From an uncultured Prevotella sp. (GTDB lineage Bacteria > Bacteroidota > Bacteroidia > Bacteroidales > Bacteroidaceae): a stretch of DNA of 64,000 nucleotides. The notes below the pieces were generated by a model. That model did no database searches and was not told the origin of the DNA. It saw only the letters and a list, made by a program, of their open reading frames with translations. A program made the position numbers and the translations under genes. The stretch covers positions 6,856 through 70,855 of the forward strand of contig CALDMD010000103.1 of the NCBI GenBank assembly GCA_937914865.1, given 5' to 3'. This document shows, in pieces, positions 11,821 to 54,711 of the stretch (its first letter is position 1; each line of letters begins with the position of its first letter).

Positions 11821-11851
11821 ACCAATAACTCAATTTAAAAGCATATTCATT

Positions 11852-14054: not shown

Positions 14055-14094
14055 ACATACCGATAAGTAATATAACTTAAAAACCAAACAATAG

Positions 14095-15990: not shown

Positions 15991-16031
15991 GCCCGTTTTG
16001 TTGATGCAAATGACCGATCTTGTTGGTTTCT

Positions 16032-16119: not shown

Positions 16120-16227
16120 TCGAGTGAGAATGACATGACATTCCTCCTTGTTAACTTGTCTACTCGTTTACTGACAGCATGTCTAAGACATGCGAAACTT
16201 CAATACTTAATTTAAACTTCAAAATAA

Positions 16228-18309: not shown

Positions 18310-18365
18310 TTGATTTTTATGTTAAGATAATTATGCACATTTGCTTAACCTTATATATAAATACT

Positions 18366-18789: not shown

Positions 18790-18873
18790 AATTCATAATA
18801 TATTACATACGGCTTTAACTTCTGTAACTTCTTTATTTACTTTAAATTCCACAAATCCGAAACTTCAATAAAT

Positions 18874-20760
18874 ATGTATCTACGCAGAATATTATTGTTG
18901 ATAGCGATGGTCGGGGCGTTTGCCGGCGCAGTCGCCCAAGAGCGCTTCTCACCGTTTCCCGACGCATCGTCCTCCTATTGGCGCAAACATATTCCCCGTG
19001 CCATGCGTGATGACTACATTCGTTTGGGGCGTGAGAACGTGGCGCAGCCGTGGACGAGAATACCCGACAACGTGTTTGCCGAGTTCCGCACAACGGGCAA
19101 CCGCATCAACTATGAGGACAAGTGTTTCGCCGTGCGTCGACGCCTGGCTTGCCTTGTCATGGCAGAGATAATGGAGCATCGCGGCAGGTTCATGCCTTCG
19201 ATAGCCAAAGGACTCCACTATTTCCTCGACGACGAACCTTGGTGGGGGCTGCCAGCCCACTATCCCAAGGCGCAGCCCGACTCTGCAGTGCAGGTGGTCG
19301 ATCTCTTCAATGCCGAGACTTCGTCGATGCTCGCATGGACAATCTACATGCTTGGCGATGAAATAAACCGCACGGAAGCGGGACTGGCAGGGCGTGTGCG
19401 CGGTGAGATAGTGAGACGGTTCATACGTCCCACGCTCAACGAACGTCAGGGATGGATGCAGAATGCCAACAACTGGAACACGTGGATAACGAGCAACTTC
19501 CTTGAATGTTCACTCCTTTGTCTTGAAAGCGGAACCCGTGAGCGCGGTGCTGCTCTTCGCACGGTCGAGGCATGTATGCGCCTGTTTCTTAAAGGCTATC
19601 CCGACGACGGCGGATGCGAGGAGGGCGTAGGCTACTGGGACAGGGCAGGGGCATCGTTCTTCGAGTCGTTGTGGATGCTGCGTGCTGCCGAGCCGTCGCT
19701 CACCGCGACCGACCACCGATACGTTCTCACTACGGCTGAACAGGAAAAGGTGGCTGCCATGGGACGGTTCATCACCACGATGCACATCAGCGACCTCTCG
19801 TTCGTAAACTTCTCCGACGCACAGGTGCACAATGTGCCGAACATAAACATCCTTTTCCCCTATGGAACGTGGATTGGCGACAACGGCATGAAGGAGTTTG
19901 CTGCCTATATAGCCAAGAAGTACGACTATTTCGGCAAGCCATCGACACTCTTCCTGCAGTCGGGCAACTGGCCTACGCTCAACCGTGAGCTGATGCTCCT
20001 CTCCATGCTCCCGCAACTGCGCGATGCCAAGGCTGCGCAGCCGACAACGCGCGACGCATGGCTCGCCAACTCGCAGGTGATGGTGGCACGCAATGCCGAC
20101 TGGCTTGTAGCTGCCAAGGGCGGCACCAACGGCGAGAGCCACAACCACAACGACATCGGCAACTTCATTGTCTATCACAACTCCCAGCCCGTCGTCATCG
20201 ACCTCGGACGCGATACCTACACGTCGCAGACATTCAGCCAGCGACGCTTCGAGCTGATGAACAACCGTTCCATGTATCATAATGTGCCGCTCGTAAACGG
20301 TTTTGAGCAACACGACGGACGGCAGTATCGCGCCTCGGGAGTGTGGCACAACGCCAACGACACCGCCTCCGTCTTCTCCCTCGACATTGCCAAGGCTTAT
20401 CCCGAAGAGGCAGGCGTAGACAAGTGGCGACGCACCATAACGCTCAACCGCAAGCGTGACTGTGTGGAAATCGCAGAGGATTGTGCCACTGGCGACGGTT
20501 GCAACCAAGCGGTGCTAATGTGCTATGGCAAACCAGATTTGCTTTTGCCAGGCCGTGTGGCGCTTGCTGACGGCAGCGTCACGCTGGTATACGATGCCGG
20601 CAAGGCTGTGGTGTCGTGGGAGAAGGTGGCAATGAACGACGGCATAATGAAGACGCAGTGGAAAGACAATGTATACAGGATTGTGCTGACTGTCAACGGT
20701 GGTGTGGCATTGTTTGACTACAGGTTTGAGCAGCCGCTTATCTCACAGAAAAGGAATTGA
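18874..20760 (+). CDS. heparinase II/III-like protein (candidate polysaccharide lyase)
   Basis: 628 aa with a signal peptide. N-terminal alpha/alpha-toroid-like half and a C-terminal segment GGTNGESHNHNDIGNFIVY typical of the Hepar_II_III family. Confidence 0.7.
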   Translation: MYLRRILLLIAMVGAFAGAVAQERFSPFPDASSSYWRKHIPRAMRDDYIRLGRENVAQPWTRIPDNVFAEFRTTGNRINYEDKCFAVRRRLACLVMAEIMEHRGRFMPSIAKGLHYFLDDEPWWGLPAHYPKAQPDSAVQVVDLFNAETSSMLAWTIYMLGDEINRTEAGLAGRVRGEIVRRFIRPTLNERQGWMQNANNWNTWITSNFLECSLLCLESGTRERGAALRTVEACMRLFLKGYPDDGGCEEGVGYWDRAGASFFESLWMLRAAEPSLTATDHRYVLTTAEQEKVAAMGRFITTMHISDLSFVNFSDAQVHNVPNINILFPYGTWIGDNGMKEFAAYIAKKYDYFGKPSTLFLQSGNWPTLNRELMLLSMLPQLRDAKAAQPTTRDAWLANSQVMVARNADWLVAAKGGTNGESHNHNDIGNFIVYHNSQPVVIDLGRDTYTSQTFSQRRFELMNNRSMYHNVPLVNGFEQHDGRQYRASGVWHNANDTASVFSLDIAKAYPEEAGVDKWRRTITLNRKRDCVEIAEDCATGDGCNQAVLMCYGKPDLLLPGRVALADGSVTLVYDAGKAVVSWEKVAMNDGIMKTQWKDNVYRIVLTVNGGVALFDYRFEQPLISQKRN

Positions 20761-22306: not shown

Positions 22307-23578
22307 ATGAAAAGAATACTGAGATCTATTATTCTTGCCGTTGTCATTCTCGTTGCACCATTGTCGGTGTCGGCAGCCAAGAAGAAAACCCCACAGCAAA
22401 GCGACCGCCAGTATTGGTGCTCGCTTGCCTACCGCATGGCGCAGCCCGTGCTTGAGAACATGTCGAAGGGCGAACTGCAGAAGAACATGCAGACAGAGTT
22501 CAGCCCGAGTTTCGACAACCGCAACCGCAAGGTGCTCTATATGGAGTGCTTCGGAAGACTCATGGCGGGCATAGCCCCGTGGCTGACCCTGCCCGACGAC
22601 AACACCGCTGAGGGCAAACAGCGCAAGCAACTCAGAGAGTGGGCGCTGCAGTCGTACAAGAATGCCGTAGACCCCCAGAGTCCCGACTATCTCTGCTGGG
22701 GCATTGGCGGACAGAACCTTGTCGATGCTGCCTACATAGCCGAGAGTTTCCTCCGTGCCTACGACACACTGTGGATGCCGCTCGACAACGAGACCAAGCA
22801 ACGCTACTTCGCGGAGTTTCGCAAGCTGCGCAAAATCGACCCTCCCTATACCAACTGGCTGCTCTTCTCGTCGACAATAGAGAGCTTCATGGCGAAGGCA
22901 GGTGGCGAATACGACGAGTATCGCGTCAACTCGGCTTGCCGCAAGATGGAGGAGTGGTACGTTGGCGACGGATGGTATTCCGACGGCCCCTCGTTTGCCT
23001 TCGACTACTACAGTTCATACGTGTTCCATCCCATGTATCTTGAGACACTGCAGGCAATGGTCGACGCCAAGGCAAACACACGTATTGACTATAAGAAATA
23101 CTATGACCGAGAGCTGAAGCGTTGCCAGAAATATGCCATCGTGCTTGAGCGTTTCATCGCTCCCGACGGCACATTCCCCGTGTTCGGTCGCAGCATACCC
23201 TACCGCATGGCGGCAATGCAGCCGCTGGCTCTCATGGCTTGGTATCAGACTCTGCCGAAGGATCTGGGCAATGGGCAGGTGCGTGCGGTTCTCACGAAGT
23301 CGCTCCATCGCATGTTCGACCATCAGCAGAACTTCAATGAGGGTGGCTATCTCACTATCGGCTTCTGCGGACATCAGCCCAACATAGCCGACTGGTACAC
23401 CAACAACGGTTCGCTCTACATGACCACGCTCGCCTTCATGCCGCTCGCACTGCCTGCCGACCATCCTTTCTGGACCGACGCACCGCAGCCCTGGACTCAG
23501 GTGAAGGCATGGAACGGCGAGGCGTTCCCGAAGGATCACCATTGGAGCGACGACATTCAGACTAAGGACAAGTGGTGA
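22307..23578 (+). CDS. DUF2264-like periplasmic protein (possible GH154-type uronidase)
   Basis: 423 aa with a signal peptide, 7 nt after the GH43 stop. Overall resemblance to DUF2264 proteins of Bacteroides PULs. The family name is recalled, not searched. Confidence 0.5.
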   Translation: MKRILRSIILAVVILVAPLSVSAAKKKTPQQSDRQYWCSLAYRMAQPVLENMSKGELQKNMQTEFSPSFDNRNRKVLYMECFGRLMAGIAPWLTLPDDNTAEGKQRKQLREWALQSYKNAVDPQSPDYLCWGIGGQNLVDAAYIAESFLRAYDTLWMPLDNETKQRYFAEFRKLRKIDPPYTNWLLFSSTIESFMAKAGGEYDEYRVNSACRKMEEWYVGDGWYSDGPSFAFDYYSSYVFHPMYLETLQAMVDAKANTRIDYKKYYDRELKRCQKYAIVLERFIAPDGTFPVFGRSIPYRMAAMQPLALMAWYQTLPKDLGNGQVRAVLTKSLHRMFDHQQNFNEGGYLTIGFCGHQPNIADWYTNNGSLYMTTLAFMPLALPADHPFWTDAPQPWTQVKAWNGEAFPKDHHWSDDIQTKDKW

Positions 23579-23610
23579 CTGGGATAGGGGGCGCCCTCGC
23601 CCCCGACATT
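23578..23610. repeat. solo copy of the REP-like element that is arrayed at 44.0-44.3 kb
   Basis: actgggatagggggcgccctcgcccccgacat contains the same palindromic core, gggggcg-ccc-tcgccccc. Confidence 0.8.
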
Positions 23611-30255: not shown

Positions 30256-31056
30256 ATGGACATGGACAAAATGTTTTCGCTTGAGGGCAAGGTAGCCCTC
30301 GTGACGGGTGCCGCCTACGGCATCGGTTTCGCAATGGCTGAGGCTCTGCACAACGCTGGTGCAAAGATCGCCTTCAACTGTCGCTCGCAGCACCACATGG
30401 ATCAGGCTCTCGCCGACTACAAGGCAAAGGGCATCGACGCGCGTGGATACATCTGCGACGTGACCGACGAGGTTCAGGTGAAGAAGATGGTGGCAGACAT
30501 CGAGAAGGAACTTGGCGTGATAGACATCCTCGTCAACAACGCCGGCATCATCAAGCGTATTCCGATGGAAGAGATGAGCGTGGAGGACTTCCGAGAGGTG
30601 GTGGACATCGACCTCAACGCTCCGTTCATCGTGTCGAAGGCTGTCATCCCCGGAATGAAGAAGAAGGGACATGGCAAGATTATCAACATCTGCTCTATGA
30701 TGTCGGAACTTGGACGCGAGACAGTATCGGCATACGCAGCCGCAAAGGGAGGACTGAAGATGCTCACGCGCAACATCTGCTCGGAGTTCGGCGAGTACAA
30801 CATACAGTGCAACGGCATCGGCCCGGGCTACATCGCCACTCCACAGACAGCTCCGCTGCGTGAACGCCAGGCCGACGGTAGCCGTCATCCGTTCGACAGT
30901 TTCATCGTGGCAAAGACTCCGGCGGCTCGCTGGGGTACGCCTGAGGACCTGATGGGACCGGTTGTCTTCCTCGCGAGCGATGCCTCCAACTTCGTCAACG
31001 GACATATTCTTTATGTCGACGGTGGCATACTTGCATATATCGGCAAGCAACCTTAA
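30256..31056 (+). CDS. kduD: SDR oxidoreductase, KduD / gluconate-5-dehydrogenase type
   Basis: ORF 30199-31056, with probable start MDMDKMFSLEGK at 30256. TGAAYGIG Rossmann motif, NNAG, and YAAAK catalytic motif. Confidence 0.85.
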   Translation: MDMDKMFSLEGKVALVTGAAYGIGFAMAEALHNAGAKIAFNCRSQHHMDQALADYKAKGIDARGYICDVTDEVQVKKMVADIEKELGVIDILVNNAGIIKRIPMEEMSVEDFREVVDIDLNAPFIVSKAVIPGMKKKGHGKIINICSMMSELGRETVSAYAAAKGGLKMLTRNICSEFGEYNIQCNGIGPGYIATPQTAPLRERQADGSRHPFDSFIVAKTPAARWGTPEDLMGPVVFLASDASNFVNGHILYVDGGILAYIGKQP

Positions 31057-31074
31057 TAGATAATGTATAAATAT

Positions 31075-31139
31075 CGTTCAAAAGGGGTGATTTTTTATTC
31101 AAAACAGCTATTTGATAAAAAATTACCTCTTTTTGAACG
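31075..31139 (+). terminator. long AT-rich hairpin after kduD
   Basis: cgttcaaaaggggtgatttttt ... aaaaaattacctctttttgaacg, with about 19 of 22 bases paired. Confidence 0.5.
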
Positions 31140-31170
31140 TATTTTGACACTCGATTAAGCTACATAGTTG

Positions 31171-31178
31171 TAATTTTG
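31171..31178 (+). promoter_or_regulatory. -7 box (TAATTTTG) with no ORF downstream
   Basis: TAATTTTGCG is the same decamer as the box at 31624 that precedes the next gene. Confidence 0.45.
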
Positions 31179-31185
31179 CGTCAGA

Positions 31186-31567
31186 AAAACAAAGCACACG
31201 GTGCTGATATATATCGACATCGTCACGACAAAGCTTCAAATAGCAGAGGGTATGAGTCTTTTCTGCTTAGGTATAAAAGGTTGTTTTCTTAGGATGATTT
31301 CTATTGATTATTAGAAGAAAGCAATGTTAGTAGATAGCAAAGAGAAAGTTCTAAGTGATATATGAAAGTAAAGAGAGTGATAGAAAATATTTGATTGTTT
31401 TTGATATAGTAAATTAAGTAAGTAGTTAGTTAGGTTTTTAAACATTAGGTAATTGTTTTTAAATTAGTAGTTAGGTTTTAGGTTATTTATAGGTTAGTTG
31501 ATTAGGTATAAAAACACAGTTAAGGTTTGTTGGAGAGGTGTATGCTGTGACAGCATACACCTTTTTT
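31186..31567 (+). ncRNA. candidate about 380-nt non-coding RNA (C-depleted, TTAGG-rich, terminator-capped)
   Basis: A promoter box lies upstream. No ORF longer than about 20 codons. Only 10 C in 31261-31540. Ends in the 11-bp stem ggtgtatgctg/cagcatacacc plus TTTTTT (31537-31567). Confidence 0.4.
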
Positions 31568-31623
31568 ATTAAAAAGTATACTTTTTAGACTGATTTTTGT
31601 ACCTGATGTTCGTGTTTATAGTG

Positions 31624-31631
31624 TAATTTTG
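31624..31631 (+). promoter_or_regulatory. -7 box (TAATTTTG) upstream of the GH43 gene at 31677
   Basis: TAATTTTGCGG lies about 45 nt upstream of the ATG. Confidence 0.5.
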
Positions 31632-31676
31632 CGGATGCTTAGTAGAATGTAAAAACCTAAAAAATACGACAAGACA

Positions 31677-32663
31677 ATGAACATCTGCCAAAAATTAAAA
31701 TGTATGTTTCTGCTTGCCGCCATGCTGTTGGTGTGCAAGTCGGGCGAAGCACGCAACAAGTATCTTTTCGTTTATTTCACCGGCAATGCTCCCGAGCAGG
31801 AGCAGATAATGTATGCCGTGAGCGACGACGGTTTCAACTACACGCCGCTCAACGGTGGCCGTCCGGTTGTCGCATCCGACTCCATCGCACGCACCGGTTG
31901 CGTGCGCGACCCGCATATTCTGCGTACCAAGAAAGGCGAATATCTGATGGTGGCAACCGATATGCGCTCATCGCTCGGCTGGTCGAGCAACCGCGGCATA
32001 GTGCTGATGAAGTCGCGCGACCTTGTGCATTGGGAGCACCATACGGTGCATTTCCCGGAGAAGTATGCCGGCTCCAATCTTGCCAATGTCACGCGAGTGT
32101 GGGCTCCGCAGACTATCTACGACGAGAAGGCAAAGAAATATATGGTGTACTTCTCGCTGCTCACCAACGACGGCACTATTCCCTACGACCGCGTCTACTG
32201 GGCATACGCCAACGACGACTTCACCGACCTTGCCACCACTCCGCAAGTACTCTTCGACTTCCATGCCCCTGCCATCGATACCGACATCGTGCAGGACAAG
32301 ACCGGCGAGTATCACCTCTTCTTCAAGACCGAGCAGGACGGCGCCCACAAGGGCATACGCCAGTATACATTCCGCGATATCCACAACCCGCAGTCGTGGA
32401 CGCTGCTCGATGGATTCTGCGAGCAGACAAAGGATAATGTGGAGGGCGCAGGAGTGTTCCCGCTCATCGACGGCGGCTGGTGTCTGATGTACGACTGCTA
32501 TATGTCGGGACACTATCAGTTCACACGCTCGGAAGACTTGCGCTCGTTCAAGTGGATGGCGGACACTAAGACGTCGGGCGCGTTCACGCCACGCCACGGC
32601 ACCGTGATTCAAATCACGCCGAAGGAGTACAAGAGACTGATGAAATGGTTTGGCAGCAAATGA
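31677..32663 (+). CDS. GH43-like five-bladed propeller glycoside hydrolase
   Basis: 328 aa with a signal peptide. VRDPHIL, ATDM and WAPQ segments fit the GH43 Asp/Glu blades. Subfamily not assigned. Confidence 0.7.
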   Translation: MNICQKLKCMFLLAAMLLVCKSGEARNKYLFVYFTGNAPEQEQIMYAVSDDGFNYTPLNGGRPVVASDSIARTGCVRDPHILRTKKGEYLMVATDMRSSLGWSSNRGIVLMKSRDLVHWEHHTVHFPEKYAGSNLANVTRVWAPQTIYDEKAKKYMVYFSLLTNDGTIPYDRVYWAYANDDFTDLATTPQVLFDFHAPAIDTDIVQDKTGEYHLFFKTEQDGAHKGIRQYTFRDIHNPQSWTLLDGFCEQTKDNVEGAGVFPLIDGGWCLMYDCYMSGHYQFTRSEDLRSFKWMADTKTSGAFTPRHGTVIQITPKEYKRLMKWFGSK

Positions 32664-32811: not shown

Positions 32812-33636
32812 ATGGATAAAAACGAAATAACCGACAAACCGCACTGCATGGTGCTCCGCACCGAGGGACTGGTCAAGCGCTACGGCAAGCGTACCGTCGT
32901 CAACGACGTGTCTATCAACGTGCGTCAGGGTGAGATTGTGGGACTGCTCGGACCTAACGGTGCGGGCAAGACCACATCGTTCTATATGACCACTGGCCTT
33001 ATCGTGCCAAACGCTGGTCACATCTACCTCGACGACCACGACATCACCGACTATCCCGTCTACAAACGTGCACGTGCCGGCATCGGCTACCTGCCACAGG
33101 AGGCGAGCGTGTTTCGCAAACTCAGCGTGGAGGACAATATCATGGCGGTGCTTGAGATGACACAGCTGCCACGCAAGACGCAGCTTGAGAAACTTGAGAG
33201 CCTCATTGCCGACTTCAACCTCGGCAAGGTGCGCAAGAACATGGGTGACCAACTCTCCGGTGGAGAGCGACGCCGCACGGAGATAGCGCGTTGCCTTGCC
33301 ATCGACCCTAAGTTCATCATGCTCGACGAGCCGTTTGCCGGTGTCGACCCTATCGCCGTGGAGGAGATACAGCACGTGGTGTGGCGACTGAAATATCGCA
33401 ACATCGGCATCCTCATTACCGACCACAACGTGCAGGAGACACTCACCATCACCGACCGTGCCTATCTGCTCTTCGAGGGACGCATACTCTTCCAAGGCAA
33501 CCCGGAGCAGCTCGCCGAGAACCAGATAGTGCGTGAGAAATACCTCGGCTCGCAGTTCGAACTCAAGAAGAAGGATTTCCAACTCGTCGACGAGCAAAAG
33601 CGTAAGCGCGACATGGAACGCGAACTGCAGGATTAG
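32812..33636 (+). CDS. lptB: LPS export ABC transporter ATP-binding protein
   Basis: 274 aa. Walker [10 protein letters not shown], signature LSGGERRR, Walker B IMLDEP, and the LptB-type C-terminal extension. Confidence 0.9.
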
Positions 33637-33762
33637 GAGTTTTGAATTTTGAGTTTTGAGTTGTTCTCGGGCTTCGCCCTGCGATTTGGAATTTTGAATT
33701 TTGAGTTTTGAGTTGTTCTCGGGCTTCGCCCTGCGATTTGGAATTTTGAATTTTGAATTTTT
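33637..33762. repeat. 2 x 52-bp tandem repeat built from GA(A/G)TTTT heptads plus a GC-rich spacer
   Basis: Units at 33651-33702 and 33703-33754 are identical, flanked by partial heptad runs. Confidence 0.85.
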
Positions 33763-33795: not shown

Positions 33796-34338
33796 ATGAA
33801 GTACCTTCTCGTTTCCGACATACACGGTTGTCTGCCCACGCTGCAGCGTGTTCTCGACTTCTACGACCGTGAGAACTACGATATGTTATTCATCCTCGGC
33901 GACATCCTCAACTACGGGCCTCGCAACCGCATACCCGAGGGTATCGACCCCAAAGGCATCGTCGAACTGCTCAATGCACGCAAGGACTCAATCGTCGCCG
34001 TACGCGGCAACTGCGACGCAGAGGTCGACCAGATGCTCCTCGACTTCCCAATCATGGCCGACTACGCCCTCGTCGTCGACGGCACGCGCCGCATCTTCCT
34101 CACACATGGTCATGTGTATAACGAGCAGAACCGTCCGTGCCTAAGCAACGACATATTCTGTTATGGCCACACCCATCTGTGGAAACTCGAGAAGGACACC
34201 GACGGTAGGGTAGTGTGCAACCTCGGTTCCATAACCTTCCCAAAGGGCGGCAACGAGCCCACCTTCGCCACCTACGATAACGGCACGTTGCGAGTGCGCA
34301 GCATGGACGGAAGCATCGTCAAAAGCCTGTCATTATGA
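33796..34338 (+). CDS. yfcE: YfcE-type metallophosphoesterase (MJ0936 family)
   Basis: 180 aa. SDIHG, LGDILNYGPRN, VRGNCD, LTHGH and GHTH motifs, collinear with E. coli YfcE. Confidence 0.85.
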   Translation: MKYLLVSDIHGCLPTLQRVLDFYDRENYDMLFILGDILNYGPRNRIPEGIDPKGIVELLNARKDSIVAVRGNCDAEVDQMLLDFPIMADYALVVDGTRRIFLTHGHVYNEQNRPCLSNDIFCYGHTHLWKLEKDTDGRVVCNLGSITFPKGGNEPTFATYDNGTLRVRSMDGSIVKSLSL

Positions 34339-34401: not shown

Positions 34402-34474
34402 ACTCAAGTTTCTCTAAGTTTGCAGAGGATTGCGACGAAGTCGCAATCCTCTGCAAACTTAGAGAAACTTGAGT
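34402..34474. repeat. 73-nt perfect palindrome (35-bp stem, 3-nt loop)
   Basis: actcaagtttctctaagtttgcagaggattgcgac-gaa-gtcgcaatcctctgcaaacttagagaaacttgagt. No T-run follows. Confidence 0.9.
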
Positions 34475-34627
34475 ATTAATAAAAAGCCTCTAATTATTTG
34501 TTCGTTGTATAAAAAAACAATATATTTGCAAAGCGAAACCTAATAGATACTATAACAATCAACTCTCTGACACCATATAACTATGAAAACGTAGCCTTCA
34601 GTTTGTCGGTCTACTTTTAATTTCATT

Positions 34628-34911
34628 ACCAGTTGTCAGCTTGCAACCATCTGATGCAATAAAAAGTAGAGTATTAGAGGAATTGTGGACGGATAGTCTT
34701 GCTCATAGATCAAAGAGTACAACAAATTCTCGCTCTTTTGTTGTCCGTGTATTAGAAGCAGAATCATATTTCTGCTAATACGGCCATCCGACTTCCTACT
34801 ATGCCTGTTGGAAGAAAAGACGAATATGGCGTTTGGGGTGACCATTATGGTTATGGCTTGGTTAATGCCTATGGAGCTGTATTAGAAACAATTAAGTATA
34901 AGCAACAATAA
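34628..34911 (+). pseudogene. relic of the 3' end of a subtilase (S8) gene
   Basis: 34756-34911 translates to NTAIRLPTMPVGRKDEYGVWGDHYGYGLVNAYGAVLETIKYKQQ*. Upstream stops and frame changes are present. The 5' limit is uncertain. Confidence 0.55.
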
Positions 34912-34924
34912 TATTTTGATTACT

Positions 34925-36232
34925 ATGAAGAAAAATTTTAAATCAATTATAGTTTTTGTTTTTTTATTGTGTTCTGTAAACAATTTGTTTGCTGAAGATA
35001 AAGAAACACTAAAAGTGTTTTATACAATTATAGGCGGACCAAATACATACGCGCGCAATTTTGACAACACCTCTACTAATGTTTATGGCTTAGTTACCAC
35101 AGTTGTCTTTCGTTTTTATGAAAATGTACAGGAGGAGTCTAAGCCTGTCTATTGTAGTCTTATGTGTGGTGATGATGTTATAGCAAAAGCCGAGATTTCT
35201 AAAATCAAAGTTTCGAATGACGCATGCTTCTTGTTTGATGATTTGATACTTCCCAAAGGAAAATCGTATAAACTTGTAGTTCCTGAAGGAGCCTTATGCA
35301 GTGTGGATAATCCGGATCTGAAGTCTGGCGAACTTGTTATTGACTTTAATGTGGATGATTTCTATGCAAGAAATACTCCTGAGCAGACTTTAAGTCAAGC
35401 CGGTTCTTACCAATTCGGATTTGCAATCAACACTATTAATTGTGATACGGGTAAAATTGTTCTTTGCCGTGAAGACAAACCAATTATGGAATACCCTTTG
35501 ATTTTTACTTATCAAGATTTTGATATAGGGGCTGCAACTTGTACATTTCCCCAAACTCTAAATTTTGAGGACAACATAAGATACACGTTCATTCTACCTA
35601 AGGGTAGCGTTCACTCGCTTGATCGTGACGATATCGTCAATTATGAGGCTCGTCATAAGTTGGTAGGTACTTGCGGGCGCACGTTTGCTCCTATAGAATA
35701 TTCCGCGTGCAGCGTTGAGGGTAGGGCAAATCTGACCGAGCTTGGCGTTGTCACAGTGGATTATTCCACTCCAGTGCAACTTGCTCCTGGCGCTCGTCTC
35801 CAACTCGTGGATAGCGACGGAGTTGTGCAGAAAGAGACTGAGGCTACGCTTTCCGACAATGGTAAGATATGGACTGTATCGGCTGATTTCAGTGGCTGCG
35901 TGGTAAATGGTGGCTTTTCTCTGTGTATTCCCGAGGCTACTGTTGTCGGCACCGGTTCGGACATAACGGTTAACCGTCGCACACTTATTGCGCTCGATGG
36001 CAGTGTCTCGTCGGTAACAGGATTGACGCACCTACAGTCTACCGTTTCATTGAATGGCTCTTTGCTTACCATCAACGGAGTGGAGCCTGGCGACCATGTC
36101 GCTATATACGATGCAACGGGTAAACTTTACCTTCGTACTACATCTACAGCTAACTCGTTAACAGTAGACTTGCCTTCTAAAGGAGTATATATAGTGAAGA
36201 CCAACGGTAGTGTCGTAAAAGTTGGAATGTAA
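34925..36232 (+). CDS. T9SS-sorted surface protein with three Ig-like (SbsA_Ig/Big-type) repeats, copy A
   Basis: 435 aa from the ATG at 34925. Signal peptide ..NNLFAEDKETLK. Repeated Y[KT]x[VI]LP[EK]G[AS]x motif. C-terminal T9SS tail ..VAIYDATGKLY..GVYIVKTNGSVVKVGM. Confidence 0.8.
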   Translation: MKKNFKSIIVFVFLLCSVNNLFAEDKETLKVFYTIIGGPNTYARNFDNTSTNVYGLVTTVVFRFYENVQEESKPVYCSLMCGDDVIAKAEISKIKVSNDACFLFDDLILPKGKSYKLVVPEGALCSVDNPDLKSGELVIDFNVDDFYARNTPEQTLSQAGSYQFGFAINTINCDTGKIVLCREDKPIMEYPLIFTYQDFDIGAATCTFPQTLNFEDNIRYTFILPKGSVHSLDRDDIVNYEARHKLVGTCGRTFAPIEYSACSVEGRANLTELGVVTVDYSTPVQLAPGARLQLVDSDGVVQKETEATLSDNGKIWTVSADFSGCVVNGGFSLCIPEATVVGTGSDITVNRRTLIALDGSVSSVTGLTHLQSTVSLNGSLLTINGVEPGDHVAIYDATGKLYLRTTSTANSLTVDLPSKGVYIVKTNGSVVKVGM

Positions 36233-36243
36233 GTAGGGCTACT
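35672..36243 (+). repeat. 572-bp direct repeat, copy 1 (3' part of gene A plus 11 nt)
   Basis: Identical to 37211-37782 except C/T at 35710/37249 (synonymous Cys codon). Period 1539 bp. Confidence 0.95.
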
Positions 36244-36448
36244 CCGCATGTATCAGGTATTGTAGCCTTGATGCTTGAACGTAACCCAAACCTTAAGGCA
36301 AGTCAAGTTATAGAAATTTTAGCAAAAACAGCTACTAGGCTCCCAACAATGCCTGTTGGAATAAAAAATATTTCGGGTTATGGGATGCTATGGCTTGGTC
36401 AATGCATATGCAGCTGTAATGAAAGCAATTGAATACAAACAAAAATAA
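36238..36448 (+). pseudogene. relic of a subtilase (S8) 3' region, frameshifted
   Basis: Translates to ATPHVSGIVALMLERNPNLKASQVIEILAKTATRLPTMPVG..GYG. A 10-nt insertion (gatgctatgg) then shifts the frame. The restored frame reads LVNAYAAVMKAIEYKQK*. Confidence 0.7.
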
Positions 36449-36454
36449 ATCATT

Positions 36455-37771
36455 ATGAGAAATATACAAAAAAAATCTGTAATATTGTTTTTTATTGTGT
36501 TTTTTAATATCTCTGTATTTGCAGAGTCAAATGAAACGTTAAAGCCATACCGGTATCTAATAAGTGGTAATGACTGGAGTACATCCGATTTCCAAAATAA
36601 ACTGACAGTACATGGACTGGTATGGTTAGTAAGTCTGTATTTTAACGAAGAATTGGCAGTACGTGAAAAAGTCAAGGGGTATATAACCAAAGATGGTGAG
36701 GTGCTGGCCGAGACAGAATTGAAAAATGAAAATAGTACAACGAATAGAGTGCTAATGATGTTTAAAGAATCATTCAAGTTTCCCATAGGCAAAAATTATA
36801 AAGCCGTTTTCCCAGCATCTTCTGTTTACAGTTTGTCAGATCCTTCTAAAACATTTGATGAGACAATTGTTGTATTTGATGTGGAAAAATATTTTTACTA
36901 TACCCGTTTTCATGGTGGATTCAATGGCGATTACAAACGCTTGCAGTTTTATTTCGACTTGAATGTTAAAAGTTTTGATGATTCTAAAATTTTGATTTGC
37001 CGTGAGGGTATCCCAGTTCTTGAATATCCAGTAGATGGAAATGACTGTTTTAGCGATTTTGACATAGGTCGTGCGACATGTGGTTTGGATCATGATTTGA
37101 ATTTTGAAGATGGCATAAAGTATACCGTTGTCCTTCCTGAAGGCAGTGTCCATTCAGTTGAACGTGACGACATTGTCAATGCCGAGGCACAGTATAACAT
37201 CGAAAAGTCATGCGGGCGCACGTTTGCTCCTATAGAATATTCCGCGTGTAGCGTTGAGGGTAGGGCAAATCTGACCGAGCTTGGCGTTGTCACAGTGGAT
37301 TATTCCACTCCAGTGCAACTTGCTCCTGGCGCTCGTCTCCAACTCGTGGATAGCGACGGAGTTGTGCAGAAAGAGACTGAGGCTACGCTTTCCGACAATG
37401 GTAAGATATGGACTGTATCGGCTGATTTCAGTGGCTGCGTGGTAAATGGTGGCTTTTCTCTGTGTATTCCCGAGGCTACTGTTGTCGGCACCGGTTCGGA
37501 CATAACGGTTAACCGTCGCACACTTATTGCGCTCGATGGCAGTGTCTCGTCGGTAACAGGATTGACGCACCTACAGTCTACCGTTTCATTGAATGGCTCT
37601 TTGCTTACCATCAACGGAGTGGAGCCTGGCGACCATGTCGCTATATACGATGCAACGGGTAAACTTTACCTTCGTACTACATCTACAGCTAACTCGTTAA
37701 CAGTAGACTTGCCTTCTAAAGGAGTATATATAGTGAAGACCAACGGTAGTGTCGTAAAAGTTGGAATGTAA
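36455..37771 (+). CDS. T9SS-sorted surface protein with Ig-like repeats, copy B
   Basis: 438 aa. Signal peptide ..ISVFAESNETLK. The N-terminal 250 aa or so are only loosely similar to copy A. The C-terminal 187 aa are identical to copy A. Confidence 0.8.
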   Translation: MRNIQKKSVILFFIVFFNISVFAESNETLKPYRYLISGNDWSTSDFQNKLTVHGLVWLVSLYFNEELAVREKVKGYITKDGEVLAETELKNENSTTNRVLMMFKESFKFPIGKNYKAVFPASSVYSLSDPSKTFDETIVVFDVEKYFYYTRFHGGFNGDYKRLQFYFDLNVKSFDDSKILICREGIPVLEYPVDGNDCFSDFDIGRATCGLDHDLNFEDGIKYTVVLPEGSVHSVERDDIVNAEAQYNIEKSCGRTFAPIEYSACSVEGRANLTELGVVTVDYSTPVQLAPGARLQLVDSDGVVQKETEATLSDNGKIWTVSADFSGCVVNGGFSLCIPEATVVGTGSDITVNRRTLIALDGSVSSVTGLTHLQSTVSLNGSLLTINGVEPGDHVAIYDATGKLYLRTTSTANSLTVDLPSKGVYIVKTNGSVVKVGM

Positions 37772-37782
37772 GTAGGGCTACT
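37211..37782 (+). repeat. 572-bp direct repeat, copy 2
   Basis: See copy 1. Identity begins abruptly inside the ORF and ends 11 nt after the stop codon. Confidence 0.95.
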
Positions 37783-37994: not shown

Positions 37995-39362
37995 ATGAAC
38001 ATTTCATTTGAAAATCCCGACAAAGTGAATGGTCTGTTGACTATCACAGTCGAAGAAGCAGATTTCAAGGACTCTGTCGAGAAGACTCTCAAGGACTATC
38101 GTAAAAGAGCTAACATCCCGGGCTTCCGTCCTGGTCAGGCTCCTATGGGTATGATCAAGCGTCAGTTTGGCGCTTCTGTACGCTACGACGCTGTAAACAA
38201 GTTCGTTGGCGAGCAGCTCTACAAATACATTAAGGACAACAACATCCAGATGCTCGGAGAGCCCCTCCCTTCAGAGAAGCAGGAGACACCTGCCGACATC
38301 GAGAAGCCGGCTCCTTACACCTTCGTGTTCGACATCGCTGTCGCTCCGGAGATCAACATCGAGCTCAACGGCCGCAACAAGATTGACTACTACACAATCA
38401 AGGCTGACGACAAGCTCGTAAACGAGCAGATCGAGATGTACCAGGGCCGTGCAGGCAAGTACGAGAAGGCAGAGGAGTATGATCCGGAGCAGAACGACCT
38501 CCTCAAGGGCGACCTCCGCGAGCTCGATGCAGAGGGCAACACTAAGGAAGGCGGCATCACCGTTGAGGGTGCTGTGCTTATGCCTTCTTATATCAAGGTG
38601 GACGAGCAGAAGGACCTCTTCAAGGGTGCCAAGCTCGGCGACATCATCACCTTCAATCCCCGCAAGGCTTATCCGGAGGGCGAGGCAGAGATTTCTTCTC
38701 TCCTCAAGATCGACCGCGAGCAGGCCAAGACCCTCGAGTCGAACTTCAGCTATCAGATTACCGAGATTCAGCGCTTCAAGAAGGCTGAGCTGGGTCAGGA
38801 GCTTTTCGACCAGGTGTTCGGCAAGGACGAGGTGAAGAGCGAGGAGGAATTCCGCAACAAGATCGTGGAGAGCCTCAAGCCGCAGCTCGAGACCAACTCC
38901 GACTATAAGTTCATGCTCGACGTGCGTGCATACTGCGAGAAGAAGGTGGGCGAGCTCACATGGCCTGACGCTCTTCTCAAGCGCGTTATGCTCCTCAACA
39001 ACAAGGACAAGGGTGAGGACTTCGTGGAGAAGAACTACGCAGAGAGCATCAAGCAGCTCGAGTGGCACCTCATCAAGGAGCAGCTCGTGAAGGCACAGAA
39101 CATCAAGGTTGACGACAACGACATCCGCGAGGCTGCCAAGGAGATGGCCCGTATGCAGTTCGCTCAGTACGGCATGACAAGCGTGCCCGAGGAGTACATT
39201 GACAACTACGCTGGCGAGCTTCTCAAGAAGCGCGAGGCTGTCGACAACTTCGTAGAGCGTGCCATTGACGTGAAACTCGCCGCCGCCCTCAAGGCAGCTG
39301 TTACGCTCAACAACAAGGAGGTGACACTCGACGAGTTCAACGAGATGATGAAGGAGAAGTAA
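37995..39362 (+). CDS. tig: trigger factor
   Basis: 455 aa. N-terminal ribosome-binding region with GFRPGQAPMGMIK (GFRxGxxP motif). Acidic C-terminal arm. Sits upstream of clpP-clpX. Confidence 0.9.
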   Translation: MNISFENPDKVNGLLTITVEEADFKDSVEKTLKDYRKRANIPGFRPGQAPMGMIKRQFGASVRYDAVNKFVGEQLYKYIKDNNIQMLGEPLPSEKQETPADIEKPAPYTFVFDIAVAPEINIELNGRNKIDYYTIKADDKLVNEQIEMYQGRAGKYEKAEEYDPEQNDLLKGDLRELDAEGNTKEGGITVEGAVLMPSYIKVDEQKDLFKGAKLGDIITFNPRKAYPEGEAEISSLLKIDREQAKTLESNFSYQITEIQRFKKAELGQELFDQVFGKDEVKSEEEFRNKIVESLKPQLETNSDYKFMLDVRAYCEKKVGELTWPDALLKRVMLLNNKDKGEDFVEKNYAESIKQLEWHLIKEQLVKAQNIKVDDNDIREAAKEMARMQFAQYGMTSVPEEYIDNYAGELLKKREAVDNFVERAIDVKLAAALKAAVTLNNKEVTLDEFNEMMKEK

Positions 39363-44034: not shown

Positions 44035-44262
44035 ATAACTGGGAGAGGGGGCGCCCTCGCCCCCGATATACTCAAGTAGCTATAACTGGGAGAGGGGGCG
44101 CCCTCGCCCCCGATATACTCAAGTAGCTATAACTGGGAGAGGGGGCGCCCTCGCCCCCGACATACTCAAGTAGCTATAACTGGGAGAGGGGGCGCCCTCG
44201 CCCCCGACATACTCAAGCAGCTATAACTGGGAGAGGGGGCGCCCTCGCCCCCGACATATAAA
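44035..44262. repeat. 5 x 47-bp tandem REP-like array
   Basis: The unit is ataactgggagagggggcgccctcgcccccga[t/c]atactcaag[t/c]agct. Copies start at 44035, 44082, 44129, 44176 and 44223 (the last is truncated). Each holds the palindrome gggggcg-ccc-tcgccccc. Confidence 0.9.
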
Positions 44263-44328: not shown

Positions 44329-44367
44329 ATGTATGTCGGGGGTGATGGCGCCCCCTCTCCCAGTTAG
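44329..44367. repeat. inverted, diverged copy of the 47-bp REP-like unit
   Basis: The reverse complement reads ctaactgggagagggggcgccatcacccccgacatacat. Confidence 0.8.
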
Positions 44368-44380
44368 TGTATGAAAGAGT

Positions 44381-50581: not shown

Positions 50582-52516
50582 ATGAGAAAATTTACACTGG
50601 CAGTAGCGTCGCTTCTCCTTTTAAATATAGGTAGTGCCGACGCAGTGACCATTGGTTACTCGAAAGAAACAATCAACCGCAACATCTTCCGACTCGGTTC
50701 TTCCACGACGCAGGGTCAGGCCATACGCCTTAGCAAGGCGAAACTCCAGGCTCTGAAGGGCAAGACGATAGACTTCGTGGAGATTGCTGTCGGCTCGAAG
50801 AACACTACGGACAATAAGCTGAACACATTCATATCCACATCTCTCGACGGCACTCCGCTTGTGGAGGGCACGCTGAAAGTGTCGAGAGCATACTCCAAAG
50901 CCAAATGGACTCTCCCCACGCCGTACACCATCACGGGCGATGAGGAATGTCTCTACATCGGCTACACGGCAGAGATACCCTCTACCTACAATATGCTTCT
51001 TTCCGACGGTTCGTACGACATCAGCGGCTGCAACTTCGCCTATAAGGACGGTGAGTGGGTGGACACGTACGGAATGGGCAAGGGTAGCGCCTACATCTTT
51101 GTTAATGTTGACGGAGCAGCCGACTACACCGACGCCATCATGGGCAGAAACAATTTCGACGGATATTTCAAGGCAGGCAACGACTACGACTTCTCGGCGC
51201 GCTTCCTCAATGCAGGCACGACCACTATCAACGCTTTCGATGCTATTGTTACGGTGGGCGGCAAAACCACCACTCAGCACTTCGACGGGCTTGCCATTAA
51301 GCCAAAGGAAGGCTACAGCTTCAAGCTCTCAGGCTTGAACAGCAACAACGAGGGCAATCAGGATGTGAACGTGGAACTTGCCAACGTCAACGGCAAGGGA
51401 GTGGAGGTGGACCCCTCCGACAACTCTTCGTCGGGCTCTCTCTTCTTCTATCCGCACGACATGGAGCGCTCGCTGCTTGTGGAGAGCTTCACGGGCCAGG
51501 ACTGCACGCAGTGTCCCTCAGGTCACGTCACTATTGACGGTGCGCTGGAGGCTTATCAAAATGTGTCTGAGGACAGTATCATCGAACTTACCCACCATGC
51601 CGGCTACTATCCAGATATGTTCACCATGGAAGAGGACGATTTCAGCCGCTTCTTCTATAGCAATCCAGGCAGCACTTTCGCACCAGCCGTGATGGTGAAC
51701 CGCAACGCCGACAGTTCTGTTGGCATGGCTCCGGTCGTCAATGTAGACTACGGCGACATCATCACTCTCCTCAGTCATGCCGCTTCTGCAAAGCCCTACG
51801 TGTCGCTCAATCTGGAGACAGCGCTCGACAAGAGTACGCGCGAGCTGACCGTCAAGCTGCAGGTGAAGCCTCATACGGATATGCCTTCCGACAAAGTACT
51901 CTTCAACGTCTATCTCGTGCAGGACGGCATCAAGGCATATCAGGCAAATGGCGGCACCAATTATACGCACAGCCGCGTGTCGAGAGGCACAGTGACGGGC
52001 AACAACTGGGGTATCAGCTGCGAACTTGAGGATGGCAAGACCATGACATGGACGAAGACCATCACCATTCCCGACAGCATCCACTCTTCCTACTGGATTG
52101 ACGACTACATCGACAACGACGGAATGTACAGCGGCAAGTACAATCCCTCGCAGACCAACATAAAGGCTGTGCTTGAGAATATGTCGGTTGTGGCATACGT
52201 CGGGGAATATGATGCGGACGACAATACGAAGAACATCATCTTCAATAGCTGTGAGGCGAAGCTCGGCGAGTCGCACATGCAGAAGGGCTTTGGTACGTCG
52301 ACAGACGTGGAGAGCGTGGAGCAGCAGCCGGCGACAGAGCCTGCTGTGCGCGTGGCTGACGGCAGGATAAGCGTCAGCGGCGACTGCGAGCGTGTGGACG
52401 TATACAGCATTGCGGGCGGAAAAGTGAATGTCGACTCGCGCCTTGCCAACGGCGTCTACATCGTGAAGCTGCTGTCGAACGGCAAGCTGACAACGAAGAA
52501 AGTGCTTGTAAAATAA
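50582..52516 (+). CDS. T9SS-sorted Omp28-related / thioredoxin-like CxxC protein
   Basis: 644 aa with a signal peptide. ESFTGQDCTQCPSGH motif. C-terminal tail ..VDVYSIAGGKV..GVYIVKLLSNGKLTTKKVLVK. The Omp28 family name is recalled, not searched. Confidence 0.7.
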   Translation: MRKFTLAVASLLLLNIGSADAVTIGYSKETINRNIFRLGSSTTQGQAIRLSKAKLQALKGKTIDFVEIAVGSKNTTDNKLNTFISTSLDGTPLVEGTLKVSRAYSKAKWTLPTPYTITGDEECLYIGYTAEIPSTYNMLLSDGSYDISGCNFAYKDGEWVDTYGMGKGSAYIFVNVDGAADYTDAIMGRNNFDGYFKAGNDYDFSARFLNAGTTTINAFDAIVTVGGKTTTQHFDGLAIKPKEGYSFKLSGLNSNNEGNQDVNVELANVNGKGVEVDPSDNSSSGSLFFYPHDMERSLLVESFTGQDCTQCPSGHVTIDGALEAYQNVSEDSIIELTHHAGYYPDMFTMEEDDFSRFFYSNPGSTFAPAVMVNRNADSSVGMAPVVNVDYGDIITLLSHAASAKPYVSLNLETALDKSTRELTVKLQVKPHTDMPSDKVLFNVYLVQDGIKAYQANGGTNYTHSRVSRGTVTGNNWGISCELEDGKTMTWTKTITIPDSIHSSYWIDDYIDNDGMYSGKYNPSQTNIKAVLENMSVVAYVGEYDADDNTKNIIFNSCEAKLGESHMQKGFGTSTDVESVEQQPATEPAVRVADGRISVSGDCERVDVYSIAGGKVNVDSRLANGVYIVKLLSNGKLTTKKVLVK

Positions 52517-52518
52517 CA

Positions 52519-54711
52519 ATGCCGCAGGTAAGAAATAGTCATATTATGAGAATACCTTATATATATATAATAGGTATGGCAATGTCTCTGTTCCCAGCCG
52601 TAGGTTGGGGACAGGGTGTTTTGTCGCCCAAGGCTGCCATTGCCTTGTCGGACAATGGCGGCAGCAATAAGCTAAAGGGAGTGGAGCACTCGGAGCGTAG
52701 ATTCTCAGCCTATGTCACCATCAATCCCTCCACGACATCGTGGCAGCAACTCGACGTGGTGCCAACGGCGCAGTATGGCAACACCGCTGTCGTGCGGCTT
52801 TCTATGGGAGAGCTGCGCGACTTGGCGACCAAAGACGGCGTGGAATACGTGCAACTCGCTTCCGGCGTAAGCCAGATGCTCGACGTGGCACGTCAGGAGG
52901 CAGGCACCGACGCCATTCATAAGGGCACGTCGCTGCCACATGCCTACACGGGAAAAGGTGTGGTTGTGGGCATTGTGGACGCAGGCTTCGACTATCTCCA
53001 CAGCGCTTTCCGCAATCCCGTTGACGGCACGTTGCGCATCAAGCGTGTGTGGGAGCAGGAGACGACCTCGTTTTCCGGAGCTTCCGCTCCTGCAAAGTAC
53101 GGCTATGGAGTGGAACTCAACACTCCCGAACTTATTGCCGCATCACAGGGCGATAGCGACTCCAACTCACATGGTACGCACGTCGCAGCGATAGCCACGG
53201 GTAGCGACGACTACAAGGACGGCGCCTACGTGGGCAACGCCCCCGACGCCGACATTGTGCTCGTGGCACTCGACCTCTCGAAATGCAGCAGTGCCGACAT
53301 CTGCAATGCCGTGCAGTACATTTTCGACTATGCCGACGAGGTGGGGGAGCCATGTGTAGTAAATCTCAGTCTCGGCAACCATGAGGGTCCGCACGACGGC
53401 ACGTCGACGTTCGACACGATGACCGACGCCATGCAGAAGGCAGGACGTCTTATCGTTGGCGCGGCTGGCAACCACCGCACGGACAAATTCCACATCGACC
53501 ACTCCTTCTCTTCTTCTTCCGATGCCCCACTGAAGACCTTCGTCAAGTACAAGAGCGGGCCGTCAGCCTCGAAGACCGGCGGCACGATAGAGATATGGGG
53601 CGAGAAGGGTACGGAATTCACCGTAGACCTTGCAGCATACAGCACGTTCAACAAGAAAGACGCCAACTCCACGACAGTCTATCCTGCCGACGGCGTCACT
53701 GAGGCGTCGTTCGGACGCTACGCCACGGGCACGTGGAAGGTGGCGTCGGAGACGAGTCCGCTCAATGGCAAGCCCCACGTGGTGCTGACCTCCGCTCTTA
53801 CCAACCTCCGCTCCAATTACGCCATCGCGCTCACCATCACTCCAAAGGGGGCTGGGCGTGTCAACGTGTGGGCTGACAACTCCTATCTCGGACTCGAGTC
53901 GCTCGGCATCGACGGATATTCCGACCCGGACGCTTCCTCGTCCACACTCGCGGAAATTGGCGGAACGGGCAAGCGCATACTGACCGTCGGCTCCTACACA
54001 ACACGCAACGAATACACTACCAACAGTGGCACGAAGGCTACGCTTGACGAGACCATAGGAGACATTAGCTCCTTCTCAAGCTATGGTCCTACTGCCGACG
54101 GGCGCATAAAACCGGACATCGCCGCTCCAGGATGTCTCATCATCTCAGCCGTGTCCACCAATGACGCGTCGAGCACACTGATGTATGCCGACTACAACGA
54201 GAAGTACGGGCGCAACAATCTCTATGGCTACATGCAGGGCACTTCTATGGCGTCGCCTTTCGTGGCAGGCATCGTGGCCACATGGCTGCAGGCTTATCCC
54301 GAGCTTACACCGGAAGAACTGCATCAGATCGTGGAGACAACCGCACGCAAGGACAACTTCACGTCTGCCGAGGCAGACAACAATTGGGGCTATGGCAAAA
54401 TCAACGCCATGGACGGTCTGCGAAAGTGTCTTGAGATGGAGGAGGCAGGATGTCAGTCGCTGCAAGTAGCGTTCGACGGCACTGTAGCTATTGCTTCAGG
54501 ACAGGCCGTTGTCAGTTTCCCGCGTGACACTCGTGCGGCTGCCGTTACGCTTTGCGACCTCTACGGTCATCTGCTTCTTAGCGAAAAACTTGGCAACAGG
54601 CGTGCAGGCGAGTCCGTCAGTGTCAGTCTGCCGTCGCTCTCCAAGGGCGTCTACGTGTTGTCGGTGAAGACCGACACCGCAAACAAACCGTATAAGTTCG
54701 TCTGTCAATAA
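52519..54711 (+). CDS. subtilisin-like serine peptidase (S8) with T9SS C-terminal domain
   Basis: 730 aa, with an alternative start at 52546. Catalytic triad contexts VGIVDAGFD, HGTHVAAIATG and GTSMASPFVAG. Tail ..GVYVLSVKTDTANKPYKFVCQ. Starts 2 nt after the upstream stop codon. Confidence 0.9.
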   Translation: MPQVRNSHIMRIPYIYIIGMAMSLFPAVGWGQGVLSPKAAIALSDNGGSNKLKGVEHSERRFSAYVTINPSTTSWQQLDVVPTAQYGNTAVVRLSMGELRDLATKDGVEYVQLASGVSQMLDVARQEAGTDAIHKGTSLPHAYTGKGVVVGIVDAGFDYLHSAFRNPVDGTLRIKRVWEQETTSFSGASAPAKYGYGVELNTPELIAASQGDSDSNSHGTHVAAIATGSDDYKDGAYVGNAPDADIVLVALDLSKCSSADICNAVQYIFDYADEVGEPCVVNLSLGNHEGPHDGTSTFDTMTDAMQKAGRLIVGAAGNHRTDKFHIDHSFSSSSDAPLKTFVKYKSGPSASKTGGTIEIWGEKGTEFTVDLAAYSTFNKKDANSTTVYPADGVTEASFGRYATGTWKVASETSPLNGKPHVVLTSALTNLRSNYAIALTITPKGAGRVNVWADNSYLGLESLGIDGYSDPDASSSTLAEIGGTGKRILTVGSYTTRNEYTTNSGTKATLDETIGDISSFSSYGPTADGRIKPDIAAPGCLIISAVSTNDASSTLMYADYNEKYGRNNLYGYMQGTSMASPFVAGIVATWLQAYPELTPEELHQIVETTARKDNFTSAEADNNWGYGKINAMDGLRKCLEMEEAGCQSLQVAFDGTVAIASGQAVVSFPRDTRAAAVTLCDLYGHLLLSEKLGNRRAGESVSVSLPSLSKGVYVLSVKTDTANKPYKFVCQ

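Follow-up and report, generated by a model that had tools for sequence, protein, structure and literature searches.

The window analysed here, a 64,000-nucleotide (nt) stretch of DNA from an uncultured Prevotella sp. (contig CALDMD010000103.1), carries a tandem pair of genes for predicted type IX secretion system (T9SS) surface proteins. We term them cargo genes 1 and 2, and call the N-terminal part of each product the head and the C-terminal part the tail. The locus is very probably a degenerate two-gene array, in which the tails are homogenised by recombination and the head alleles are chosen at the population level. The array is flanked by a metallophosphoesterase gene (yfcE-like, 33796-34338) on one side and by the trigger factor gene tig (37995-39362) on the other. 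Remnants of two further genes, an S8 (subtilase) peptidase gene and a gene termed X, are found upstream of the cargo genes. The features of the locus are as follows.

34925-36232, plus strand: cargo gene 1, an open reading frame (ORF) of 435 amino acids (aa) with a putative signal peptide, followed by three beta-sandwich domains (D1-D3) and, beyond a linker, a T9SS sorting domain of type A.
36455-37771, plus strand: cargo gene 2, an ORF of 438 aa with the architecture of gene 1 and a different head.
35672-36243, plus strand: homogenised tract, copy 1, which holds D3, linker and sorting domain as well as 11 nt of the 3' untranslated region (UTR); it starts at residue 250.
37211-37782, plus strand: homogenised tract, copy 2; homology to copy 1 stops at 37782 and unique sequence follows toward tig.
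36233-36243, plus strand: cargo 3' UTR of 11 nt (GTAGGGCTACT), up to the deletion junction where S8 remnant 2 begins.
34765-34911, plus strand: S8 peptidase remnant 1 (relic 1), the last ~49 codons including the stop, fused to the X remnant.
36244-36448, plus strand: S8 peptidase remnant 2 (relic 2), codons ~380-452, starting ..PHVSG; the catalytic Ser is absent and the frame is shifted.
34583-34778, plus strand: 5' remnant of gene X, a signal peptide and ~40 codons, frameshifted, with a stop at 34776-34778.
34521-34528, plus strand: candidate Bacteroidetes -7 motif TAnnTTTG (TATATTTG), a motif match only, upstream of the X start.
34402-34474, not assigned to a strand: perfect palindrome of 73 nt, just downstream of yfcE.

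When the two units are aligned in a register of 1539 nt, DNA identity stays at 20-70% per 50-nt bin up to position 35671 (about 45-60% upstream overall). The segments 35672-36243 and 37211-37782 are then identical at 571 of 572 sites, and identity collapses at 36244. The sole mismatch, C versus T at 35710, falls in the third position of a Cys codon (TGC/TGT) and is synonymous. At the protein level the two heads are 30% identical and the two tails 100%. The original prediction, made from the letters of the window, had described the near-identical tract with its sharp edges, its continuation 11 nt past the stop codon and its one synonymous site, as well as a loosely similar N-terminal part of ~250 aa; all of this was confirmed, together with the two plus-strand ORFs and the ends of their putative signal peptides (..LFAEDKETLK in gene 1, ..VFAESNETLK in gene 2).

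The abrupt switch between heads and tails is seen in other members of the family as well. In a second lineage (lineage 2), the heads of proteins P0002 and P0004 are 30% identical and their tails 95%. Comparison between lineages gives a different picture: the product of gene 2 and P0002 share 77% of the head and 68% of the tail, and the product of gene 1 and P0004 share 47% and 68%, respectively. The heads of P0007 and P0011 are 27% identical and the tails 98%, and two paralogues on contig L010 have heads with 16-50% and tails with 85-95% identity. The lineage-2 pair P0054/P0040, encoded on one contig (L040), has tails that differ at 22 DNA sites and are 96% identical, and heads with ~45% identity in DNA. 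Since these 22 differences are retained, the similarity of lineage-2 tails does not result from assembly collapse. In three lineages, the distance between the switch point and the end of the repeat unit is 572, 566 and 588 nt, and it is exactly 572 nt when a strain that has only gene 1 is compared with one that has only gene 2. The 3' tract is closer within lineages (100% and 95%) than between them (68%), as the original prediction implied.

The grouping of heads by type across lineages and of tails by lineage indicates concerted evolution or mosaic recombination, the breakpoint in three lineages being the predicted D2/D3 boundary. Homogenisation of tails within a genome is the simplest reading of this incongruence, and some horizontal import of heads is likely as well. 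The incongruence and the identical synonymous sites also bear out the proposal, made with the original prediction, of an old duplication with later tail homogenisation. The synonymous divergence (dS) of the tail is ~0 within the window, 0.15 versus other strains of the species-level group and 1.1-1.2 versus lineage 2. For head 2, dS is 0.07 versus other strains and 0.36 versus lineage 2, and head 1 is saturated between lineages. Head 1, head 2 and the tail are therefore three segments with three histories. The ratio of nonsynonymous to synonymous divergence (dN/dS) is 0.14-0.33 in heads and tails alike; both are under purifying selection, with the heads representing old conserved types. Positive selection on the heads was not seen at these dN/dS values, and the earlier idea of an exposed half that keeps diversifying is not supported in this respect.

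The base composition of the array follows the same division. GC content is 33-38% in the heads and relics, ~50% in the tail and 54-58% in the flanking genes, in agreement with the AT-richer block reported previously. In all family members (the window, L007, L009, L010, L012, L016, L025 and L040), the GC content of third codon positions (GC3) is 28-44% in heads and 39-72% in tails. Heads and tails may have resided in the genome for different times, or conversion may have been biased. That GC-biased gene conversion alone made the tails richer in GC is unsupported, as the single-copy module L012 has the same shift.

Both tails exceed the cutoff of 23 bits of TIGR04183, the NCBIfam model for the T9SS type A sorting domain (27.7 bits for gene 1 and 27.8 bits for gene 2), a search that had been suggested along with the original prediction. 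The N-terminus, inspected by eye, has a basic start, a hydrophobic core and a potential cleavage site ..FA|E; AlphaFold confidence is low over residues 1-26. The AlphaFold model of the gene 1 product, built from a 17-sequence alignment (pLDDT 80), is all-beta, with sandwich domains at residues ~30-145, 150-250 and 255-358; residues 359-370 form a disordered linker, and a separate C-terminal sandwich spans 371-435. The identity switch at residue 250 coincides with the predicted boundary of D2 and D3. A Foldseek search against PDB returned generic strings of immunoglobulin (Ig) and fibronectin type III (FN3) domains alone, with no specific function indicated.

The cargo family is small and includes 15 clusters at 90% identity among 5.8 billion proteins, all of them from gut metagenomes and none with a name or a Pfam domain. 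An exact look-up of the two cargo proteins gave no record; the products of genes 2 and 1 were found via the cluster listing as database proteins P0029 and P0034, respectively, each with a 100% match. For each of these two the longest contig, from NCBI and ENA, has 85,554 bp, and they probably share one contig. A scan of species-representative genomes gave a single locus, in Leyella stercorea (43% identity), and a further metagenome scan gave chiefly Leyella stercorea-type orphan genes and no extra two-gene allele. Cargo homologues in contigs of relatives are 35-77% identical. The cargo proteins constitute a new, unnamed family restricted to Prevotellaceae.

The fragments upstream of the two cargo genes were compared with a profile made from intact S8 relatives. 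Profile positions 393-439 match 34756-34908 of the window (E 2e-17), and profile positions 365-415 match 36211-36429 (E 1e-17). Relic 1 is 76.6% identical to residues 406-452, the last 47, of the intact S8a of L007 (tblastn E 2e-18), and relic 2, translated after correction of its frame, reaches 30.5 bits with PF00082 (cutoff 21.8). Both fragments were thus correctly recognised as S8 C-termini in the original prediction. Relic 2 starts just past the catalytic Ser (..ATPHVSG). Neither relic has the complete Asp-His-Ser triad in an intact frame, only codons ~404-452 and ~380-452 of ~450 being left, and both are dead remnants. Compared with relic 1 and with its orthologue in L006, relic 2 lacks 10 nt (GAGCATTATG); its frameshift is thus due to a deletion and not to a 10-nt insertion in a relic as first read.

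The upstream part of relic 1 belongs to gene X. Among all 2052 six-frame fragments of the window, the best match of an X N-terminal profile is at 34587-34775 (E 0.0055). The frame of the X remnant is shifted by an A-run that is 2 nt shorter; the same X leader in L006 is still an ORF, beginning MKKRSLQFVGLLLISLPVVSLQPSDAIKSRVLEELW. Assignment of 34692-34778 to a highly diverged S8 segment 377-404 was rejected, since the S8 profile stops short of it and the X N-terminal profile peaks there. Judging by sequence, relic 1 is X(1-~66) fused to S8(~404-452), and relic 2 is the 11-nt cargo 3' UTR fused to S8(~380-452). The 11 nt after the stop codon are identical in every allele. Within this UTR, GGGCTACT resembles the DNA of the S8 Ser motif, TGGCTGCT, which precedes CCGCAT in intact S8 genes; the junction of relic 2 therefore lies at a microhomology. 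The peptidases were lost via large deletions, at least one of them at a microhomology, and not via the gradual point decay that the word "decayed" in the original prediction suggests.

The intact three-gene operon X-S8-cargo was found in gut-metagenome contigs (L010/L011, L012-L015 and L025). The X product has 516-523 aa and its own TIGR04183 sorting domain (30.5 bits). The intact S8 protein has 448-453 aa and a lipoprotein-type signal, is without a sorting domain and is nearest to mycosin/PrtP models. In the intact operons the cargo gene starts 10-18 nt past the S8 stop. Intact S8-cargo or S8-cargo-S8-cargo arrays occur in L007, L040, L010, L012 and L025; the order is X end, S8a, cargo, S8b, cargo in L007 and S8, cargo, relic, cargo, S8, cargo in L040. 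The ancestral peptidase-plus-cargo module postulated earlier is supported by these arrays, with the correction that it has three genes (X, S8 and cargo).

The proposal that an intact copy of this module survives in the window at 50582-54711 was not upheld. This region encodes an Omp28-like protein with a T9SS sorting domain, followed by an S8 protein (52519-54711) with a sorting domain of its own. The gene order is reversed relative to the module, local identity of this S8 protein to the intact relatives of the relic S8 is only 27-38%, and it gave no tblastn match to the relics. The two genes form a T9SS pair of their own that has no relation to the relic S8 family.

Similar but independent remnants occur at other loci. 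X(1-87) is fused to S8(383-448) in L009, the cargo UTR is fused to S8(403-) in L040 and to S8(404-) in L008, and an S8 remnant lies between two cargo genes in L010. No S8 remnant was detectable at the Leyella stercorea orphan loci tested (L016, L017, L031 and L032). In the window, L006, L008, L009 and L040, the S8 deletion endpoints cluster at codons 377/380/383, the serine motif, and at 403/404/404. Their upstream partners vary (X or cargo UTR), and at least the last 25 S8 codons are kept at every remnant-bearing locus. The clustering of endpoints and the kept S8 3' end may be due to hotspots, or else the region upstream of cargo may be constrained.

Three allele forms were found at the yfcE-tig site. 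The gene-1-only allele, in contigs from five assemblies (L001-L005), runs from head 1 through the tail into tig. The gene-2-only allele (L006) has the X leader joined to S8 codon 377 via ..GAATTGTGGA|AAATGGCTGCTCCGCAT, a junction that is not in the window. The two-gene allele is represented by the window and 11 further contigs from 11 samples. The flanks of single-gene strains differ from those of the window by 3-5%, and the single-gene alleles are therefore distinct strains and no recent switch products. Derivation of the gene-2-only allele by a simple deletion of the two-gene allele was rejected, since its junction AATGGCTGCT matches the S8 consensus, whereas the window has the UTR-derived GTAGGGCTACT. 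The arrays of lineage 2 vary too: L007 is without head 2', L040 has the order head 1'-relic-head 2', and L008 has head 2'-relic-head 1'. The variants in copy number and head choice that had been predicted thus exist at one chromosomal site at the population level. As for the surface-variation cassette proposed at the same time, allelic presence or absence in the population stands, and nothing indicates a programmed switch in a single clone.

These data suggest the following scenario for the homogenised array. By analogy with known type A sorting domains, the cargo would be exported by Sec, pass through the T9SS, lose the sorting domain and become attached to the surface, with D3 as a stalk and D1-D2 exposed. 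Large deletions took nearly all of X and both peptidase genes and left the promoter region, the X start and the last 49-73 S8 codons before each cargo gene. The direct 572-nt tail repeats could serve as substrates for RecA-dependent gene conversion that keeps the tails near-identical, and unequal crossing-over between them would remove relic 2 and head 2. Common flanks, namely the X leader upstream and the tail and tig downstream, permit allelic replacement and copy loss, so that a strain has either head 1 or head 2 alone or the two together. What varies is the population-level presence, absence and order of old head types, with no programmed switch.

Several observations weigh against this reading. 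The tails score 16.7-16.9 bits with the Pfam model PF18962 (Por_Secre_tail), under its gathering threshold of 27, and the scan of window ORFs gave no por, sov or gld gene. Head 2 has a lower dS between lineages (0.36) than the tail (1.14-1.24, about 1.2), so the mosaic could come partly from head import. The only copy-specific difference, at 35710, is 39 nt from the repeat edge, in reach of a k-mer anchored in unique sequence. The tail sites 36038, 36061 and 36125 vary between assemblies and yet are always equal in both copies. Five combinations occur at these three sites and do not follow the two haplogroups set by five unique-region sites; collapse of the copies by an assembler would give such a pattern. 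With regard to secretion, use of the T9SS by the organism is suggested by the other proteins of the window that bear a C-terminal sorting domain (50582-52516 and 52519-54711).

It is possible, if somewhat improbable, that horizontal head replacement was the main source of the mosaic. In this case resident tails would be lineage-specific, and AT-rich heads with upstream S8 3' ends would be imported, recombining at the D2/D3 boundary; the two-gene allele would come from an illegitimate crossover of a gene-1-only and a gene-2-only allele at a GGCT(A/G)CT microhomology. The difference in dS between head 2 and the tail agrees with such an import, as does the GC3 of the tails, which is nearer to the host genome than that of the heads in every family member. 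The two-gene tail falls outside the group formed by the tails of the two single-gene strains (dS 0.155 vs 0.077), and the S8 remnant of the gene-2-only allele starts at codon 377, ~3 codons before the junction of the window, both also in line with import. However, the joined tails would have different parents, 18 of 572 sites differ between the tails of single-gene strains today, and a later conversion would still be required to reach 571/572. Moreover, in L040 of lineage 2 the same head-1-then-head-2 order occurs with another relic breakpoint, which favours an old tandem array. Head import and tail conversion are not mutually exclusive.

An assembly artefact, with one copy absent in reality or with differing tails collapsed by a short-read assembler, would be a poor explanation of the tandem pair, in spite of the pattern at the interior tail sites. 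Both heads and the unique junction 36243/36244 were found in 11 further independently assembled contigs from 11 samples, and the possibility that one copy is an assembly duplication, raised with the original prediction, was not borne out. Mixed single-gene strains cannot yield this junction, as in the gene-2-only allele the X leader is followed by AAATGGCTGCT|CCGCAT, and the L040 tails keep their differences at high overall identity. The tails were compared in 11 two-gene sequences (the window and ten contigs with both tails), and in all 11 they differ only at 35710. The interior pattern could reflect either frequent conversion or a few true copy differences that were collapsed. Since collapse needs sparse differences, tail identity is no lower than ~98% in either case. 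On this sequence evidence, the presence of two genes is itself no artefact.

Programmed antigenic or phase variation, in which a single clone would switch heads at high frequency, is highly improbable. In its favour, RecA could delete or amplify the 1539-bp unit by way of the 572-nt direct repeats, and the lineage-2 arrays (L007, L040 and L008) differ in content and order. Against it, neither the neighbours within ±4 kb nor the ten large window ORFs scanned were seen to include a recombinase, an invertase or a reverse transcriptase. The promoter is not framed by inverted repeats, and silent cassettes lacking a promoter are absent (each gene is complete, and the repeat scan returned only the palindrome and weak AT-rich matches). 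Furthermore, all 11 of 11 two-gene assemblies have the same structure and length, and the single-gene alleles are old and occur in strains with the flank difference given above.

Returning to the homogenised array, we considered how its genes could be transcribed. The perfect 73-nt palindrome noted in the original prediction was confirmed and consists of 35-nt arms, 100% complementary, and a 3-nt loop. Its RNA fold has an energy of -62.6 kcal/mol (z -16.7), and it is probably a terminator or insulator hairpin. It is found only in the two-gene lineage, the single-gene strains having a short GC hairpin instead. The loop is GAA in the window and TTC, the reverse complement, in 8 other assemblies, which is due to either a loop flip or assembler ambiguity. 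On the plus strand from yfcE to the promoter site of tig at 37881, TAnnTTTG occurs only at 34521-34528, the candidate -7 motif, barring a copy in the palindrome at 34415; this motif is kept in L001 and L006. Relic 2 has no plus-strand match to TAnnTTTG, no terminator-like hairpin was found between the cargo genes (the only terminator-like site is on the minus strand), and sigma-70 promoter-like sites occur at chance level only. The promoter inherited from the operon probably serves both cargo genes in a single transcript.

We speculate, although we think it unlikely to hold in full, that X, S8 and cargo together constitute a T9SS-dependent surface system of gut Prevotellaceae, in which the dedicated lipoprotein subtilase matures or trims the Ig-like surface proteins. 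The tail could be a lineage-specific docking module matched to the host machinery and hence homogenised, and the AT-rich heads could be exchangeable cassettes kept by frequency-dependent selection, for example by phage or secretory IgA. The retained last 25-75 codons of S8 could act as a regulatory or translational element for the cargo.

The genes within ±4 kb of the array are lptB, yfcE, tig, clpP, clpX and recQ, and the ten large ORFs scanned belong to a polysaccharide utilisation locus and to housekeeping genes. This polysaccharide utilisation locus (4012-20760) includes a hybrid two-component regulator, a SusC/SusD pair, GH43, GH127 and a heparinase II/III-like protein, a context typical of a Prevotellaceae chromosome. 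A 52-nt tandem repeat (2.5 copies, 33631-33761) lies between lptB and yfcE, and a 47-nt GC-hairpin tandem repeat (4.8 copies, 44035-44258) follows recQ. Related copies of 32-39 nt elsewhere in the window (23578-23609 and 44331-44369) suggest a dispersed element resembling repetitive extragenic palindromes (REP-like). The inter-ORF region 31000-31800 is very AT-rich (GC 29-33%), with a strong positive GC skew and a weak 19-nt repeat at 31423-31480. No Rfam match was found anywhere in the window, this region included.

The locus is a well-documented case of T9SS surface-protein variation in abundant gut Prevotellaceae, with a uniform anchor and interchangeable outer domains at a fixed site. With the corrections made here, the evolutionary reading of the original prediction was largely right. 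The cargo remains under purifying selection after the loss of the peptidase, and the three-gene family of X, S8 peptidase and Ig-like cargo was previously unnamed. The repeat is of the type that short-read assemblies can collapse, and it is a potential strain marker.

Mosaic T9SS surface-protein paralogues with a homogenised tail are of a known kind and involve no new mechanism. In Tannerella forsythia, the KLIKK proteases are encoded by a cluster of T9SS cargo genes, each behind a partner gene; their heads are disparate, and their C-terminal region, which includes the sorting domain, is near-identical (PMC4404884; PMC9890683). The array described here shares with them the clustering, the disparate heads with a near-identical tail, the partner gene directly upstream, and the presence or absence of the array between close relatives. 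In contrast to the KLIKK heads, which are peptidases of several classes, the heads here are predicted to be non-enzymatic Ig/FN3-like beta-sandwiches, and the partner is an S8 lipoprotein peptidase reduced to a stub rather than potempin, a small inhibitor of lipoprotein type. The cargo genes and the KLIKK proteases showed no relationship in sequence, and the resemblance is organisational only.

In Porphyromonas gingivalis, RgpA, Kgp and HagA have adhesin modules common to several surface proteins, and their alleles are exchanged between strains (PMC5266723). As in our locus, these T9SS surface proteins have identical repeat segments across genes, variants of their parts are unlinked, the diversity is ascribed to recombination, gene conversion and inter-strain allelic exchange, and the repeats are hard for short-read assembly. 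The modules shared there are haemagglutinin/adhesin domains (CAD, DUF2436) in dispersed genes, whereas here they are the membrane-proximal D3 and the sorting domain in tandem genes; the family and the genus are different as well. A further close system comprises the intact operons and arrays of relatives (L010, L012, L025, L007 and L040) and the Leyella stercorea orphan L016, with homologous cargo, the same head/tail switch point and S8 immediately upstream. In contrast to the intact operons, X and both S8 genes of the window are reduced to remnants.

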